Source: Calditrichia bacterium (lineage in GTDB: Bacteria > Calditrichota > Calditrichia > RBG-13-44-9). From it: a DNA stretch of 12,567 nt. A program made the translations under genes and the position numbers. Positions 1-9,047 of this stretch are shown in pieces (positions within the stretch are counted from its first letter, which is position 1; each line of letters opens with the position of its first letter). The notes beneath the pieces were generated by a model. It saw only the letters and a program-made list of their open reading frames with translations, was not told the DNA's origin and made no database searches. The stretch covers positions 15,740 through 28,306 of the forward strand of contig JARRQT010000045.1 of NCBI GenBank assembly GCA_037381445.1. Reading direction: 5' to 3'.

Positions 1-522
1 AAAATAAATAGGCGATTCATCATTAAGTTTCAAATGTTTTTTGATCTCCCGCTCCCTTAGTGTCCTCTGATTTTTATTGATCCGGTCCGCTTTGGTAGCC
101 ACCAGCTGAAAAGGTATTCTGTTAAATTTAATCCATTCCAGAAGTTGCATATCATTTTTTTGAAGCCCTACCACCGAATCCACCAGAACAAACAGCAAAT
201 TCAGATGCTCGCTTTTCAGGAGATAATTTTCGATAAAGACAGCCCATTTAGCCTTCTCGGATTCCGGGACTTTTGCATACCCGTATCCCGGAAGATCAAC
301 AAAGTAAAACAAACTGTTGATCAGGTAGTAGTTTATTGTTCTCGTCTTTCCCGGCTGCTTGCTGACCTTTGCAAAATTTTTGCGATTCACCAGGCAATTG
401 ATGAGGGAAGATTTCCCGACATTTGAGCGGCCGGCAAAAGCGAACTCAGGCAGTCCAGGCGACGGTTTTTGTTTTAAATCAATAATACTTTTCAGGAATT
501 TTGACTCGGTAATATTCAGCAT
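1..522 (-). CDS. engB: Ribosome biogenesis GTP-binding protein EngB/YihA/YsxC (3' end runs off the window)
   Basis: Translated by hand from ATG at 522: MLNITESKFLKS...PEFAFAGRSNVGKSSLIN (G1)...PGKTRTIN (G2)...FVDLPGYGYAKV (G3)...VATKAD (G4). The frame stays open to base 1. Not in the ORF track. Confidence 0.96.
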   Translation of the reverse strand, partial: MLNITESKFLKSIIDLKQKPSPGLPEFAFAGRSNVGKSSLINCLVNRKNFAKVSKQPGKTRTINYYLINSLFYFVDLPGYGYAKVPESEKAKWAVFIENYLLKSEHLNLLFVLVDSVVGLQKNDMQLLEWIKFNRIPFQLVATKADRINKNQRTLREREIKKHLKLNDESPIYF

Positions 523-571
523 ATTTTTTGTTTGTCTAAATTAGGTGAAAATTTATCATCATTGGCACAAA

Positions 572-600
572 TTAAAAGGGGAAGATCAAATCTTCCCCTT
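572..600 (-). terminator. Intrinsic terminator downstream of trxA
   Basis: Perfect 11-bp inverted repeat AAGGGGAAGAT-caa-ATCTTCCCCTT (576-600). On the minus strand the stem runs into CCCCTTTTAATTT, about 25 nt after the trxA stop. Confidence 0.8.
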
Positions 601-624
601 AATAAATCCAAAAGATATTTTAGT

Positions 625-948
625 CTATAAAATTTTCTGTAATTTATCTAAAAAATGGGTTTTGGGATATGCGCCGATCACCTGCTCAGCGACCTTGCCA
701 TCCTTGAAGAACAGCACTGTCGGAATACTGCGGATGCCAAACTTAATGGCCACATTTGGATTGTTATCCACATCCAGCTTGGCAATTTTTATCTTGCTGT
801 CATATTCATTCGCAAATTCTTCCATAATTGGAGCTATCATTTTGCAGGGACCGCACCAGACTGCCCAAAAATCCACAATGACCGGTTTATCCGATTGTAA
901 AACTTCCTGCTCAAAGGTAGCATCCGTTACCTCAATAGGTTTAGCCAT
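625..948 (-). CDS. trxA: Thioredoxin
   Basis: 107 aa with the DFWAVWCGPCK active site and the IRSIPT cis-Pro motif. SD GAGGAG 7 nt upstream of the ATG. Confidence 0.98.
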   Translation of the reverse strand: MAKPIEVTDATFEQEVLQSDKPVIVDFWAVWCGPCKMIAPIMEEFANEYDSKIKIAKLDVDNNPNVAIKFGIRSIPTVLFFKDGKVAEQVIGAYPKTHFLDKLQKIL

Positions 949-978
949 ATGTATCTCCTCTCGGTTTAATTAAAGCCA

Positions 979-1007
979 AAGTTAAAAACTTCCACTTGCT
1001 AAATCAA
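979..1007 (-). promoter_or_regulatory. Sigma70-type promoter of trxA
   Basis: Minus strand TTGATT (1007-1002), 17-nt spacer, TAACTT (984-979). Confidence 0.6.
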
Positions 1008-1049
1008 TTTTGAAAATATTTGTTCCGTGGTATGTCAAAAAACGAGAGA

Positions 1050-1502
1050 TCAATCCGATGAAGGATAACGCAGGATATCAATTTTGACCCGACATACCCC
1101 CTTGTTTATCAGCCCCAGGGCATCGGCTGCTCCTCTGGAAAGATCCAGAATCCGATTATCCACAAAAGGTCCCCGATCATTTATCCGAACGATTACGGTT
1201 TTATGATTGTCCAGATTGGTCACTTTGCAGATTGTTCCGAATGGCAGCGTTTTGTGGGCAGCGGTTAATGCGTACATGTCAAAGGTCTCACCGTTGGCTG
1301 TCTTCTTTCCATGAAAATCGCGTCCATAATAGGAAGCGGATCCATATATGACATCCAGAGCGCGGGCCTGGCTAAAATCTCTTTTTAGATCCTCGCGGGT
1401 TATATTTTCAGCAGCAAGCCGCCTTCTGACGTTATTGGAGTGGGAACATCCGATGAATAATATGGTAAGTATCAGAATTACAAAAGTAAATGAATTTTTC
1501 AT
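1050..1502 (-). CDS. rlpA: RlpA-family lytic transglycosylase lipoprotein (double-psi beta-barrel only, no SPOR domain)
   Basis: Lipoprotein signal ending ILFIG-C. Motifs GSASYYG, GKKTANGETFDMYALTAAHKTLPFGT and RINDRGPF..RILDLSRGAA. Confidence 0.93.
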   Translation of the reverse strand: MKNSFTFVILILTILFIGCSHSNNVRRRLAAENITREDLKRDFSQARALDVIYGSASYYGRDFHGKKTANGETFDMYALTAAHKTLPFGTICKVTNLDNHKTVIVRINDRGPFVDNRILDLSRGAADALGLINKGVCRVKIDILRYPSSD

Positions 1503-1566: not shown

Positions 1567-3786
1567 CTATTTGTTACGATTTCGGCGCCAATCGCGGTAA
1601 CGCCTGGTTTTGGTAATAGCCGGTAACGAGCCGCTATCGTCTTCGGGAGAGGAAATGCCGCCCGTGACCTGTGAAGAATCGGCCCCTTGTACCGATTCCT
1701 GATTCAGGGCAAGCTGAGCGGCAGAAGTATCTGCAGAGCTCACCCCAGCCGAGGTGGATTCTGTTTCTTTAGGTGGCGGTGCGGTTTTGATGGAAGCCAA
1801 ACGGGAAAATTGGGGCTGGGGAAATTTGTCTTTAAGATAGCGATATTCCATAACTGCCTTTTCTCTATTCTTAAGATCATGCTCATAAATCCAGGCACGG
1901 TTTAGCTGCGCTTTTGCGGACCAGATCAGATTTGTATCCAGAGAAGCTACTTTTTCGTAAAGGGACAAAGCGCTGTCAACTTTATTTTCGTAATAGAGTT
2001 CTTCTGCCTGCAGGAACATCTTATGACCCAATTCCTCAAGGGAGTCTTTGCTGGTGCTGTCGGACAAATTTAATTTTCCTTCCCGAGTGAGAATTTCCGT
2101 TGAGAAGGAAGAGCCGGGATACTGGGACATCAGAATGTTCTCAAGGGAGTCAACCTTGGAGGAATCCAGATATTCAGGCTTTGAATAAATAAAATACATG
2201 GAATAGAGGGCTTTGGGCGTTAAAACACTATCCTGATATTCATCGAGGAATTTGTGATAGTAATACAAAGACGAATCATAATCCTGCATTTGCAGCAGGT
2301 AATACTCTGCCAGATGGTAGCGATTATTTTTCAGATCTTCTTTTATCTGAGGTAACTTTCTTTTCTCGAGCTCCTTTGGTTTTTCGGTTTCTTTTTCATT
2401 CTTCTCATCCGGCTTCTTTTGATCATTAATTCTTTTAACTTCCGGTTCATTAAATAAATTTCTGCGATCGGACAGACCTGTTTCGATATCATCCTTTTCT
2501 TTATCCTGTTCCAGTGTGGAATCTTTGGCGGTACTGCTCTCCTGGGTCGTATCCTGAAGTTCGGGATTGATCCCGCTCAACACTCTTTTTAGACTGTCCA
2601 GTGTTTTCTGTTGGCTTGAATCGGGAGTGCCTCTCATTTTTTTCAATTCCAGTTGAATGGAATCTTCGAGCTGCGCATTGTAAAGAGAGTCTCTGAAATA
2701 ACGATCATTTTCAAGCCGGAATACCAGTCGGCCATCATTTTTTATGGAGTCTTTTATCTTTTTCAAACCAGAAAGGTATATGTTCTTCTGTTCGGCCGTC
2801 TGGATGCTGTCCGATTTGGGATAAAGCTTTTTTACCATACCATAGTAATAAACCGCCGAATCCAAATTCTGCAGGCGGTTTTCATAGATCTTTGCCAGAT
2901 TCAGGCTGGCTTGTGCGGTTCCCTCGCTGGAGGCTTTCTCTCGGACAACTTCTTTAAAGAGATCCAGCGCATCGTCCATTTTATTCTGCTGATAATAGAT
3001 ATCGGCGATTTCGGTCTTTATGAATGGGACAAAGCTTTTGAAACGCACCGCTGTCAGCATTTTGCGCAAGATTTCCAGGGCATTGTCATATTTGTTAATC
3101 TTGTTGTAGCTTCGTGCCAAATTGAATTTGGTTTTATACTCGATATCAATGGTTGGTGAAAATTTCTCCACTTTCCTGTAGCGATTGATTGCCTCCTTAT
3201 ACTCACCCTGGGCAAAATATGATTCCCCTAAATAAAATTGAATAAAAGCGGAATATTCCTTGTCAGATTTTTCTTTGAGTGCTTTTTCAAAAAATTCAGC
3301 AGCTTCGGGATAATTTTCATTCTCGAAAGAAAGATATCCCAGCTCGTAGTAAGCTTCAGCCCGTATCTGGCTTTTTTTAGCCGTATTCACGCTTTTGAAA
3401 AGATAATCCTTGCCCTCATCGACTTTCGCTTCTTCCAGTAAAATCTTGCCAAGCCACAAATTTGCTTCCGGCGTCAAATCGCTTTTGGGATATTTGGACA
3501 AAAACTGCTCAGCATGAAGACGTGCTTGTGCAAATTTCTGCAGATTATATTCACTTTTGACAATATAAAGAAGAGCATCATCGGCATATTTGCTCTTGTC
3601 GCTGTATATCTCAATTAATTTCCAGGATTTTTCGATGGTCTGCTCAAAATAGCGATTGGCCTGCGGATGTGTATCCTTATCCGGTTCTTTTTGTATTATT
3701 TCGATACCGCTCTGGTATGTTTTCTTGGCATTAAAGAGTGTGTTGTAATAGGCACATCCCCAGATGGCTAATACCAGTTTGGGCAA
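1567..3786 (-). other. Large TPR lipoprotein moiety, probably SprE/PorW-like or BamD-repeat-like envelope protein
   Basis: Lipobox-like AIWG-C (Cys codon 3754-3756), then YYNTLFNAKK and SKYADDALLYIVKS, repeated TPR helices (AEAYYELGYLSF..YPEAAEFFEKAL; YP.S motifs), a charged linker and a Ser/Thr-rich tail. The family assignment is from recollection of motifs, not a search. Confidence 0.65.
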
Positions 3787-4485
3787 TATCTTATCTGATG
3801 ATGTTTCAATATGCTCATCCACGCTGTGAGTAAGGGGCGTTTTTTCCGGATTTATTTCCACAACATAAGCACCGTTACCTTTGGCCATATAGGGCAGTGA
3901 GGCAGCCGGTTCAACCAGGGAAGAAGTACCAATAGAGAAGAACACCTCACTACGCATTGCCAGGTCCTGCGCCTCTTGTAATGCCCGCTCGGGCAACAGT
4001 TCTCCAAACCACACCACATCCGGGCGCAGATTTCCGCCGCAATCCGGGCAGGCGGGCACCCCATCCTTTACATCAATTTCACCCTTAAATATCTTTCCGC
4101 ATTGCGAGCACTTGTTTCGCAAAATATTGCCGTGAAGTTCAATAACGTTTTTACTTCCTGCCACCCGGTGCAGGTTATCCACATTTTGAGTGATGATGCC
4201 AAAGTCAGAAAAGAGGCTTTCCATAACAACCAACGCTTTATGGGATAGATTGGGTTTTACATCATGCATCAATTGGCGGCGCCAGTTGTACCATTCCCAA
4301 ACCAGCTCAGGATTTCGAAGAAACGCATCAAAATTTGCCAGTTCCTCGGGACGGAACTTGTTCCATAATCCGTCTTCTCCGCGAAAGACCGGGACCCCGC
4401 TCGATGCCGAAATTCCTGCACCCGTCAGAACACCTACCGTATAGGCGTTTTTCAATCTATTTAATAAACGTCCGCTAAATTCCAT
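1567..4485 (-). CDS. cobB: 972-aa ORF: N-terminal NAD-dependent protein deacylase (class III sirtuin, aa ~1-241) fused in frame to a TPR lipoprotein (from Cys244)
   Basis: One uninterrupted frame with SD AGGAAAGGA before the ATG at 4485. Sirtuin motifs GAGISAxSG..FRG, TQNVDNLH, HGN, CxxC..CxxC, RPDVVWFGE, GTS and EINP are followed directly by LVLAIWG-C-AYYNTLFNAKK and many TPR helices. It may represent two ancestral genes. Confidence 0.8.
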   Translation of the reverse strand: MEFSGRLLNRLKNAYTVGVLTGAGISASSGVPVFRGEDGLWNKFRPEELANFDAFLRNPELVWEWYNWRRQLMHDVKPNLSHKALVVMESLFSDFGIITQNVDNLHRVAGSKNVIELHGNILRNKCSQCGKIFKGEIDVKDGVPACPDCGGNLRPDVVWFGELLPERALQEAQDLAMRSEVFFSIGTSSLVEPAASLPYMAKGNGAYVVEINPEKTPLTHSVDEHIETSSDKILPKLVLAIWGCAYYNTLFNAKKTYQSGIEIIQKEPDKDTHPQANRYFEQTIEKSWKLIEIYSDKSKYADDALLYIVKSEYNLQKFAQARLHAEQFLSKYPKSDLTPEANLWLGKILLEEAKVDEGKDYLFKSVNTAKKSQIRAEAYYELGYLSFENENYPEAAEFFEKALKEKSDKEYSAFIQFYLGESYFAQGEYKEAINRYRKVEKFSPTIDIEYKTKFNLARSYNKINKYDNALEILRKMLTAVRFKSFVPFIKTEIADIYYQQNKMDDALDLFKEVVREKASSEGTAQASLNLAKIYENRLQNLDSAVYYYGMVKKLYPKSDSIQTAEQKNIYLSGLKKIKDSIKNDGRLVFRLENDRYFRDSLYNAQLEDSIQLELKKMRGTPDSSQQKTLDSLKRVLSGINPELQDTTQESSTAKDSTLEQDKEKDDIETGLSDRRNLFNEPEVKRINDQKKPDEKNEKETEKPKELEKRKLPQIKEDLKNNRYHLAEYYLLQMQDYDSSLYYYHKFLDEYQDSVLTPKALYSMYFIYSKPEYLDSSKVDSLENILMSQYPGSSFSTEILTREGKLNLSDSTSKDSLEELGHKMFLQAEELYYENKVDSALSLYEKVASLDTNLIWSAKAQLNRAWIYEHDLKNREKAVMEYRYLKDKFPQPQFSRLASIKTAPPPKETESTSAGVSSADTSAAQLALNQESVQGADSSQVTGGISSPEDDSGSLPAITKTRRYRDWRRNRNK
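3763..4485 (-). other. cobB: Sirtuin (CobB/SIRT5-like, class III) domain
   Basis: Complete set of Rossmann-fold and Zn-ribbon motifs (CSQC...CPDC). YxxR motif in WEWYNWRR is typical of desuccinylases. Ends in the usual terminal helix (..DKILPKLV). Confidence 0.95.
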
Positions 4486-4511
4486 TTTGTATAATCCTTT
4501 CCTGCCATTGC

Positions 4512-4540
4512 AAAATAATAATGACCAATATGAGTGTCAA
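4512..4540 (-). promoter_or_regulatory. Sigma70-type promoter of the cobB-TPR(-rlpA) unit
   Basis: Minus strand TTGACA (4540-4535, perfect), 17-nt spacer, TATTTT (4517-4512). Confidence 0.65.
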
Positions 4541-4551
4541 GTCGCTAATTT

Positions 4552-4580
4552 ATTACCATTTATTTTGGCAAAATGGTAAT
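4552..4580. repeat. 10-bp perfect inverted repeat (operator or weak recR terminator)
   Basis: ATTACCATTT-N9-AAATGGTAAT, between the recR stop and the cobB -35 box. Confidence 0.55.
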
Positions 4581-4627
4581 TCTTGCATGTGGATCAGACT
4601 TATATTTTATGATATTTTCTATAAGGA

Positions 4628-5227
4628 TCAGATTTCACTTCTGGTTTTTAATGCTTTTCCCAGGGTTAATTCATCGACAAATTCCAGTGTGCTGCCCAGC
4701 GGAATGCCTCTCGCCAGGCGCGTAATTTTGACATTTAAAGGCTTGATGAGGCGCGAAAGATATATACTGGTGGCTTCGCCTTCGGTGCTGGGGTTAAGCG
4801 CCAGAATAACCTCCTCCGCCTCATTTAACCGGTTTAACAATTCCTTGATATGCAGATCCTCCGGCCCAATTCCATCGAGCGGAGAAATCACTCCCCCAAG
4901 GACGTGATAAACCCCTCTATATTCGTTGGTTTTTTCAATCATCATGATGCCGGCCGCATCTTCCACAACACAAATCTGTTTTTGATTGCGGTTGGGATCC
5001 CTGCAGATGTGGCATTGTTCATCTTCGCTGAGGTTGAAGCAAATTGAACAGAAGCGGATTTTTTCCTTGACATCAATTATTGCTCTTGCCAGGGTTTCCG
5101 CTTCGGTTTTTGATATTTCCAAAACATGCAGGGCGAGACGAGTAGCTGTTTTGCGCCCGATTCCGGGAAGCCGCCCGAATTCTTCAATTAAATCCTGCAA
5201 AACAGGAGGGAAAGATTGCAGCGCCAT
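4628..5227 (-). CDS. recR: Recombination mediator RecR
   Basis: HhH motif LPGIGRKTATRLA, C4 zinc finger CSICFN..CHIC, Toprim motifs (YHVLGGVISPLDGIGP; NPSTEGEAT; RLARGIPLG). Confidence 0.98.
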   Translation of the reverse strand: MALQSFPPVLQDLIEEFGRLPGIGRKTATRLALHVLEISKTEAETLARAIIDVKEKIRFCSICFNLSEDEQCHICRDPNRNQKQICVVEDAAGIMMIEKTNEYRGVYHVLGGVISPLDGIGPEDLHIKELLNRLNEAEEVILALNPSTEGEATSIYLSRLIKPLNVKITRLARGIPLGSTLEFVDELTLGKALKTRSEI

Positions 5228-5230
5228 ATA

Positions 5231-5566
5231 TTATAAACCAGGAAATTTAAACCCGCCAGGCATATTGCCCATGATGCCGCCCGTTACCTTGCTCATTTCT
5301 TCCTGGGCGCGTTTCTGGGCGTTTTCCAAAGCTTGATTCACTGCCCCGACAACCAGATCCTCCAACATATCTTTATCTTCCGGATCGATGACCTCTTGCT
5401 CTATCTTGACTTCCAGTATCTGATTCTGGCAATTTGCCGTAACCTTTACCATTCCGCCGCCGGCACTTCCTTCCACGGTTATATTGGCCAGTTCTTCCTG
5501 AACTCGCGCCATTTCTTCCTGCATTTTTTGGGCCTGTTTCAGAATTTGATTCATTCCACCTTTCAT
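5231..5566 (-). CDS. ybaB: YbaB/EbfC nucleoid-associated protein
   Basis: KQAQKMQ...VEGSAGGGMVKV...DMLEDLVVGAVNQAL. Conserved position between dnaX and recR. SD GAGGAG upstream. Confidence 0.97.
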   Translation of the reverse strand: MKGGMNQILKQAQKMQEEMARVQEELANITVEGSAGGGMVKVTANCQNQILEVKIEQEVIDPEDKDMLEDLVVGAVNQALENAQKRAQEEMSKVTGGIMGNMPGGFKFPGL

Positions 5567-7428: not shown

Positions 7429-7461
7429 TCAATTTGCCTCACAAAATAATATGTAAAATAA

Positions 7462-7558
7462 AGCCAGGTAACCCCACGGCACATAGTCCAAATGCCTACC
7501 GTTGCTTCCTTCCGGACCTGGCGGGGTTCGGCACAGTCCTATTGCGTGGGACCTGGCT
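7462..7558 (-). ncRNA. ffs: Small bacterial SRP RNA (4.5S)
   Basis: Minus strand AGCCAGGT...GCCAGGTCCGGAAGGAAGCAACGGT...ACCTGGCT: conserved domain IV with a GGAA tetraloop and paired termini. Typical position upstream of dnaX. Confidence 0.95.
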
Positions 7559-7577: not shown

Positions 7578-7650
<73 letters not shown>

Positions 7651-8035: not shown

Positions 8036-8087
8036 AAGACTTATTAAATTCTTGCGGCCATGACACGAGCGTTTTTTTCCGAGAAAA

Positions 8088-9047
8088 TTGAGATCTGCCC
8101 AGAATACAAAAAAATTCTTTAAAGAACTTGACTACATTTTGCACAAATCATTTAAGGTTGATGAATATGCGCTGATTTTACAGCATAAGAATTCTGAATT
8201 TTTGACAGTGTTTCATTCCTACGGACTTCCCAAGCGGGAAATGAAGGAAATTTTTTATCGGCCGGGAGAAGGCATTGCGGGAAAAGTATATCTGAACAAC
8301 CGCGCGGTTTACATTCCCGATGTATCGGCCATCAAAGGGTTCTCATACTATTTTAACTCCCGCAAACCGGTATACGGCAGCCTTTATTATCATCCGGTTC
8401 TCGATGAGAACGGCAAGTGCATGGGTCTTTTAAAGATGCGAAAAGTCGCCAGAGAAGGTTTCTCTGAAGTTGAAAGATCCGTTTTCCGTATTTTGCAGCA
8501 TGAGATCGGATCTACCTTTTTAAGCGTTCGTAAACTTGAAATACTCCGCACCAAGAGCTTTGTGGATCAGGACACATCACTTTATAATCATCACTATTTC
8601 AAAGAGCACTATCCCATAGAATTCAAACGGGCGCAGCGCTATCAGCATGATCTCTCAATTGTGATGTTAAATATCAATGATTTGCAGAAAATCAAAGATC
8701 AGTTTCTCCATACACAAATACTCAAAGATGTTGGCGGGCTGTTACGGGAAACTACCCGTACCAGCGATATATGCATTCGCAATGGTGAGGATGAGTTTGT
8801 TATTCTATTGCCCGAGACTTCCCGGCAGGCGGCATATGAAGTCGCCGCCAAATTGAATAAGGCCATTACGGATTTTTATTTCAATAAAAACGGAGAGTAT
8901 GGAAATACAAGCCTCACCCTTGCAATAGGCGTGGCCAGTTATCCCGCGGATACTATTGAACCGCATCTTTTAGTAGAAATAGCGCAGAAATCCCGGAAGA
9001 ACCCGCAGGAACTGGAGATAGACAAAAGCAACTCCTCTCCGGAATAA
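8088..9047 (+). CDS. GAF plus degenerate GGDEF domain protein (start codon uncertain)
   Basis: GAF motifs GEGIAGKV..VYIPDV and GFSEVE. GGDEF fold: EFKRAQRYQHDLSIVML..RTSDICIRNGEDEFVILLP..LAIGVASYP. Catalytic motifs are degenerate. Confidence 0.88.
   Translation: MRSAQNTKKFFKELDYILHKSFKVDEYALILQHKNSEFLTVFHSYGLPKREMKEIFYRPGEGIAGKVYLNNRAVYIPDVSAIKGFSYYFNSRKPVYGSLYYHPVLDENGKCMGLLKMRKVAREGFSEVERSVFRILQHEIGSTFLSVRKLEILRTKSFVDQDTSLYNHHYFKEHYPIEFKRAQRYQHDLSIVMLNINDLQKIKDQFLHTQILKDVGGLLRETTRTSDICIRNGEDEFVILLPETSRQAAYEVAAKLNKAITDFYFNKNGEYGNTSLTLAIGVASYPADTIEPHLLVEIAQKSRKNPQELEIDKSNSSPE

Follow-up and report, generated by a model that had tools for sequence, protein, structure and literature searches.

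An apparent sirtuin-lipoprotein fusion gene in a Calditrichota draft genome is almost certainly a local assembly error between two neighboring genes

Background

CobB is a class III sirtuin which, we assume, removes acetyl and succinyl groups as other members of this class do; its family is described by PF02146, NF001753 and NF040867. SprE and PorW, in the accessible parts of two reports (PMC10994853, PMC8754138; structure 8gl8_I, family model NF052312), are lipoproteins of the type IX secretion translocon in which arrays of TPRs are broken by a low-complexity middle. A further precedent concerns assemblies rather than genes. In the accessible part of Chen et al. (10.1101/808410), scaffolded genomes assembled from metagenomes are described as containing local errors that put incorrect proteins into public databases, with IDBA_UD as the most suspected source.

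Here we analyzed a stretch of 12,567 nt, referred to as a whole as the window, from a draft genome (G000) whose host is likely a Calditrichota bacterium, as the source names of homologous proteins point there. The first-pass annotation of this DNA had described a complete class III sirtuin fused in frame, through an internal lipobox, to a TPR lipoprotein, and had considered a polyprotein cut by LspA, a nested gene with its own start, and an in-frame loss of the cobB stop together with the start of the next gene. The last of these was right. The fused open reading frame (ORF) is almost certainly a local assembly error, in which 135 nt between two ordinary adjoining genes were dropped; an intact contig and losses throughout the same genome favor misassembly over a real deletion.

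Results and Discussion

As text, the ORF is what it had been said to be, with coordinates, domains, cysteine and TTG all accurately described, yet no such gene exists in reality (Table 1). In Pfam searches the SIR2 match covered residues 22-193 of the 972-aa ORF (E 1e-50), with TPR families further on, and the CobB models of NCBIfam covered residues 9-239. Downstream of the lipoprotein gene (1-1502, minus strand) are genes for an RlpA-like DPBB protein, a thioredoxin and a ribosome-associated GTPase, and a small SRP RNA and a tRNA (7459-7558 and 7578-7650, minus strand) are located upstream of dnaX-ybaB-recR, an ordinary arrangement.

Table 1. Features of the fused ORF in the window, and frameshifting losses elsewhere in the same assembly (G000)
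Feature	Location	Strand	Basis
Fused ORF, 972 aa, no internal stop	4485..1567	-	open-frame reading
cobB, predicted class III sirtuin, residues 1-240 of 246 aa; last 22 nt including the stop missing	3767..4485	-	Pfam SIR2; NF001753; P0004
TTG proposed as nested start (at 3786); codon of CobB Leu234, no start	3784..3786	-	lies in cobB, before the join; also found in the stand-alone CobB P0004
False join, 135 nt missing, no N, no letters common to both sides; within the Ala240 codon, between 3767 and 3766	3766..3767	.	run contigs X1, X2, X3
Remaining end of the lipoprotein's signal peptide, Ile-Trp-Gly (apparent internal lipobox)	3757..3766	-	same three residues before Cys in P0002
Lipoprotein +1 cysteine (Cys244 of the ORF, codon 3756-3754)	3754..3756	-	invariant in 38/38 aligned homologues
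Mature TPR lipoprotein, probably SprE/PorW-like, 729 aa, encoded by its own gene	1567..3756	-	P0002; SprE 8gl8_I profile match; NF052312
N-free frameshifting loss in rho	C20 near 35775		
N-free frameshifting loss in nuoL	C46 near 8146		
N-free frameshifting loss in lnt	C350 near 3450		
N-free frameshifting loss in hflC	C9 near 6110		
N-free frameshifting loss in hemN	C396 near 1540		
12 more N-free frameshifting losses			

The first gene is a class III sirtuin (CobB), predicted from its sequence to be an NAD-dependent deacylase. It scored 173 bits against PF02146 and 280 bits against NF001753, above the cut-off of 243, and reached 282 bits against NF040867, below the cut-off of 320. The motifs GAGISA, FRG, TQNVD and HG, two CxxC pairs and Tyr-x-x-Arg at 66-69 were all present. 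We take these to comprise the NAD-binding and zinc motifs, the catalytic HG and, in Tyr-x-x-Arg, the class III desuccinylase signature. The match to the family extends over the whole domain, except that the copy in the window is without the last 6 residues; the sirtuin that had been called complete also lacks its stop when compared with the 246-aa CobB P0004.

The second gene encodes a lipoprotein that is probably SprE/PorW-like and would belong to a type IX secretion translocon. When the PDB was searched with the single lipoprotein sequence, mostly designed and generic TPR proteins were returned and SprE was not among them. With a profile of 38 homologues, SprE (PDB 8gl8_I) was the best natural PDB protein, aligned in one stretch (5-663 versus 6-754, E 1.1e-18). 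All 38 homologues matched NF052312. The window lipoprotein was the best PorW/SprE match in its genome, from model position 26, and it is collinear with the family over nearly the whole length, sharing both the predicted lipid anchor and the TPR arrays interrupted by a low-complexity middle, yet it scored 105-107 bits, below the cut-off of 250. It is therefore called SprE-like here rather than a filed member of the family. An unrelated TPR protein of the comparison genome G009 scored 165 on the same model through its repeats. As a predicted SprE/PorW counterpart, the lipoprotein would be lipidated, cut by LspA and brace the SprA translocon from the periplasm.

Other components of type IX secretion were also found in G000, including SprA over its cut-off (C78:1113-6296), 24 of 35 PorV-family matches over cut-off and 138 type A CTD matches on many contigs. 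No GldK, GldL, GldM or GldN was detected over cut-off in this genome, which is 92% complete, although the GldL, GldM and GldN controls matched nowhere; for GldK, a trace of 28 residues was seen. The type IX translocon of this organism could be driven by another kind of motor, or by one that has diverged strongly. In a search of the literature, the term T9SS did not occur among the matches listed.

To directly analyze the junction, we used public sequencing runs. Five runs contain part of the stretch, all as contigs and none of them RNA, and four were compared over 2800-5300. A 2,333-nt contig of run X1 matches 3024-3766 and 3767-5221, 2,198 nt in all, with 0 differences and 0 gaps, and carries 135 additional letters between window positions 3766 and 3767. 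Its depth is 9.79, compared with 11.7 and 10.4 for the flanking contigs, and it accounts for all of X1's depth where the two halves meet. A relative that is about 95% alike is present in runs X2 and X3, both from one sample of a second study; here 6 nt are skipped and 141 lie between, again a net 135. The net excess of 135 nt was thus seen in all three runs that cover the junction, whereas X4 does not reach it. Extra sequence at this point had been named beforehand as the sign of an artefact, and it was found, in contigs rather than raw reads. Among the contigs listed, none ran across the join without the 135 nt, although rare variants are dropped from contigs. The window may have come from the sample of X1 itself. 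In that case the assembly is contradicted by its own reads; otherwise, an identical strain exists without the deletion. A species-specific DNA pattern gave 0 matches in metagenome contigs, and a search for relatives' loci with the sister protein P0002 found distant ones only (6 in metagenomes, 1 in genomes), none of them independent DNA with the 135 letters.

The two separate products are also on record. In the protein collection, the fused protein was recorded from one contig only, equal in length (28,306 nt) to the one that carries the window, under an NCBI source, and its 90%-identity cluster also contains P0003 and P0004 (246-aa CobBs) and P0002 (750 aa). P0004, which comes from the 2,333-nt contig, shows 0 differences over residues 1-240 and stops 6 residues later. 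P0002 begins with its own Met and has a type II lipoprotein signal peptide of 21 residues ending in Ile-Trp-Gly before the +1 Cys; from this Cys onward, 700 of 729 residues are identical to the window lipoprotein. What had looked like an internal lipobox thus consists of the three last residues of the next gene's signal peptide, stuck onto CobB. By length accounting based on P0002, the 135 nt would comprise 22 nt of the cobB end, about 60 nt of intergenic DNA and 53 nt of the signal-peptide start. A search of G000 for the lost signal peptide and cobB tail found neither at any other place. It should be noted that the false 972-aa protein ties the CobBs and the TPR protein into one 90% cluster, a case of an assembly error that has spread into a protein database.

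The same two genes were examined in related genomes. In 25 of 29 relatives' loci (L002-L030), cobB is upstream of the lipoprotein gene, and it has its own stop in each of the 25. The window is shorter than 22 of these 25 by 86-188 nt, including exactly 135 nt in the case of G009, and shorter than the other 3 by 346-658 nt. The lipoprotein Cys is preceded by a hydrophobic leader and by an in-frame stop 21-73 codons upstream in 28 of 29 relatives, the remaining one being masked there. Twenty further stretches (L100-L119) gave a similar picture, with a cobB stop in 20/20 and a signal peptide in 19/20 (the remaining one is frameshifted at its start). Altogether, cobB stops before the TPR gene in 45 of the 45 related genomes in which both genes are readable, and none of the 45 has a fusion. 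The first-pass annotation had named a cobB stop and a separate TPR gene in all of the closest relatives as a second sign against a fused system, and this is what every readable relative has.

The order itself, cobB followed by a SprE-like gene, is kept in these 45 genomes of the class (L002-L030, L100-L119), always as two genes. Some long open-frame values from a search of the class with a junction query (e.g., 953 aa in G043 and 1036 aa in G020) were considered as further fusions and rejected, as every such row listed, the last ten of them among L100-L119, has a cobB stop.

We then asked how the rest of the assembly compares with that of a relative. That G000 is scaffolded is evident from its 79 runs of N (1-107 nt), of which one lies 56 nt ahead of the window. 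The comparison genome, G009, belongs to another genus, and 1.198 Mb of its approximately 5.1 Mb was sampled. When G009 proteins were aligned to G000, 21 frameshift splits were observed in 663 orthologues, and 17 of these splits, spread over 16 proteins, were losses of 32-197 nt without N (a few of the losses, e.g., in mutS, are less sure because of overlapping alignments). In the reverse control, G000 proteins on G009, there were 2 splits in 691 and 0 N-free losses. The loss in rho is of 62 nt, and its two sides are 98% and 94% identical to the orthologue. Apart from paralogues, G000 does not have the missing pieces of the broken genes at other places. When only in-frame losses were counted, the two assemblies did not differ clearly (4/499 versus 2/501). 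With 17 events in 746 kb of coding DNA compared, G000 has about one loss of 30-200 nt, without Ns, in every 44 kb. That rho, nuoL and lnt, as genes unlikely to tolerate such a loss, are broken alike points to one technical cause, and it is unlikely that one organism has broken all these genes.

A GAF-GGDEF gene in the window (8088-9047, plus strand) is about 43 N-terminal residues short compared with its G009 orthologue, and none of the other frames has the missing part. Either the assembly may have lost a second piece, near 8080, or the two genes may really differ.

On these data, the organism almost certainly has two adjacent genes on the same strand, cobB (246 aa, cytoplasmic) and, about 60 nt downstream, the lipoprotein gene (approximately 750 aa). 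In the draft assembly, two pieces were joined without Ns and with 135 nt dropped, probably by a scaffolding step. A scaffolder that underestimates gaps, and that joins pieces without Ns when its estimate is zero or less, would leave clean losses with no shared letters, as observed here. The frames ran together because 135 is a multiple of 3; one loss in three keeps the frame, and by chance this one fell across the border between two genes. Collapse of a repeat was weighed as another cause and rejected, as the join is without shared letters. The case resembles those in the accessible part of Chen et al. (10.1101/808410) in that a consensus that is probably unsupported, at a single place in a scaffold, resulted in a wrong database protein, and differs from them in that read support was judged here through contigs.

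There is a slight chance that the 135-nt in-frame deletion is real and private to one strain or subpopulation. Such a strain would make a cytoplasmic CobB-TPR hybrid that could not be exported, and would effectively have lost the function of the lipoprotein. The join is indeed in frame, contigs cannot show rare alleles, and X1 may not be the sample from which the window came. However, the intact form is present in a contig of otherwise identical sequence, and rho, nuoL and lnt are broken in an equivalent way in the same assembly. In addition, spontaneous deletions often use short repeats, whereas the two sides of this join share no letters.

The other two explanations, even when taken together, are much less probable than this. 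A real polyprotein, split by LspA into a deacylase on the cytoplasmic side and a lipoprotein, has the open frame and the Cys context of a single contig in its favor, and we consider it extremely improbable. The intact contig refutes it unless raw reads show the short form, and the cobB stops of the relatives speak against it as well. Moreover, none of the 120 homologues listed, of 142 found with query residues 150-420 (proteins of 534-1,701 aa), has a sirtuin part, and a 442-aa junction query against 86 genomes of the class was matched in one piece in G000 only, among 150 of 206 matches listed; neither the class genomes nor the protein homologue search gave a second example. The hydrophobic segment also fails as that of a genuine fusion, with 7 uncharged residues preceding the Cys in the window, whereas P0002 has 16 and the median among 115 homologues is 13. 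A literature search on polyproteins with a sirtuin, a lipobox and signal peptidase II gave no listed paper that names a sirtuin. A related scenario, a minority strain of the source sample with a true deletion, whose CobB-SprE precursor would still enter the membrane and be processed by LspA, the deacylase serving as an oversized signal peptide, is likewise extremely improbable. The nested gene, starting at the in-frame TTG 10 codons before the Cys and having a very short signal peptide, is no more credible and is refuted by the intact contig, which places the TTG 135 nt further from the Cys with the cobB stop between them. This TTG is in cobB DNA, and the sister protein P0002 has a start Met of its own, located 21 residues ahead of the Cys.

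Conclusions

Fusions, frameshifts and truncated genes reported from this genome should be presumed to be artefacts until reads show otherwise. For the biology of the group the locus is unremarkable, as throughout the class cobB is ordinarily followed by a SprE-like gene that stands apart from it.
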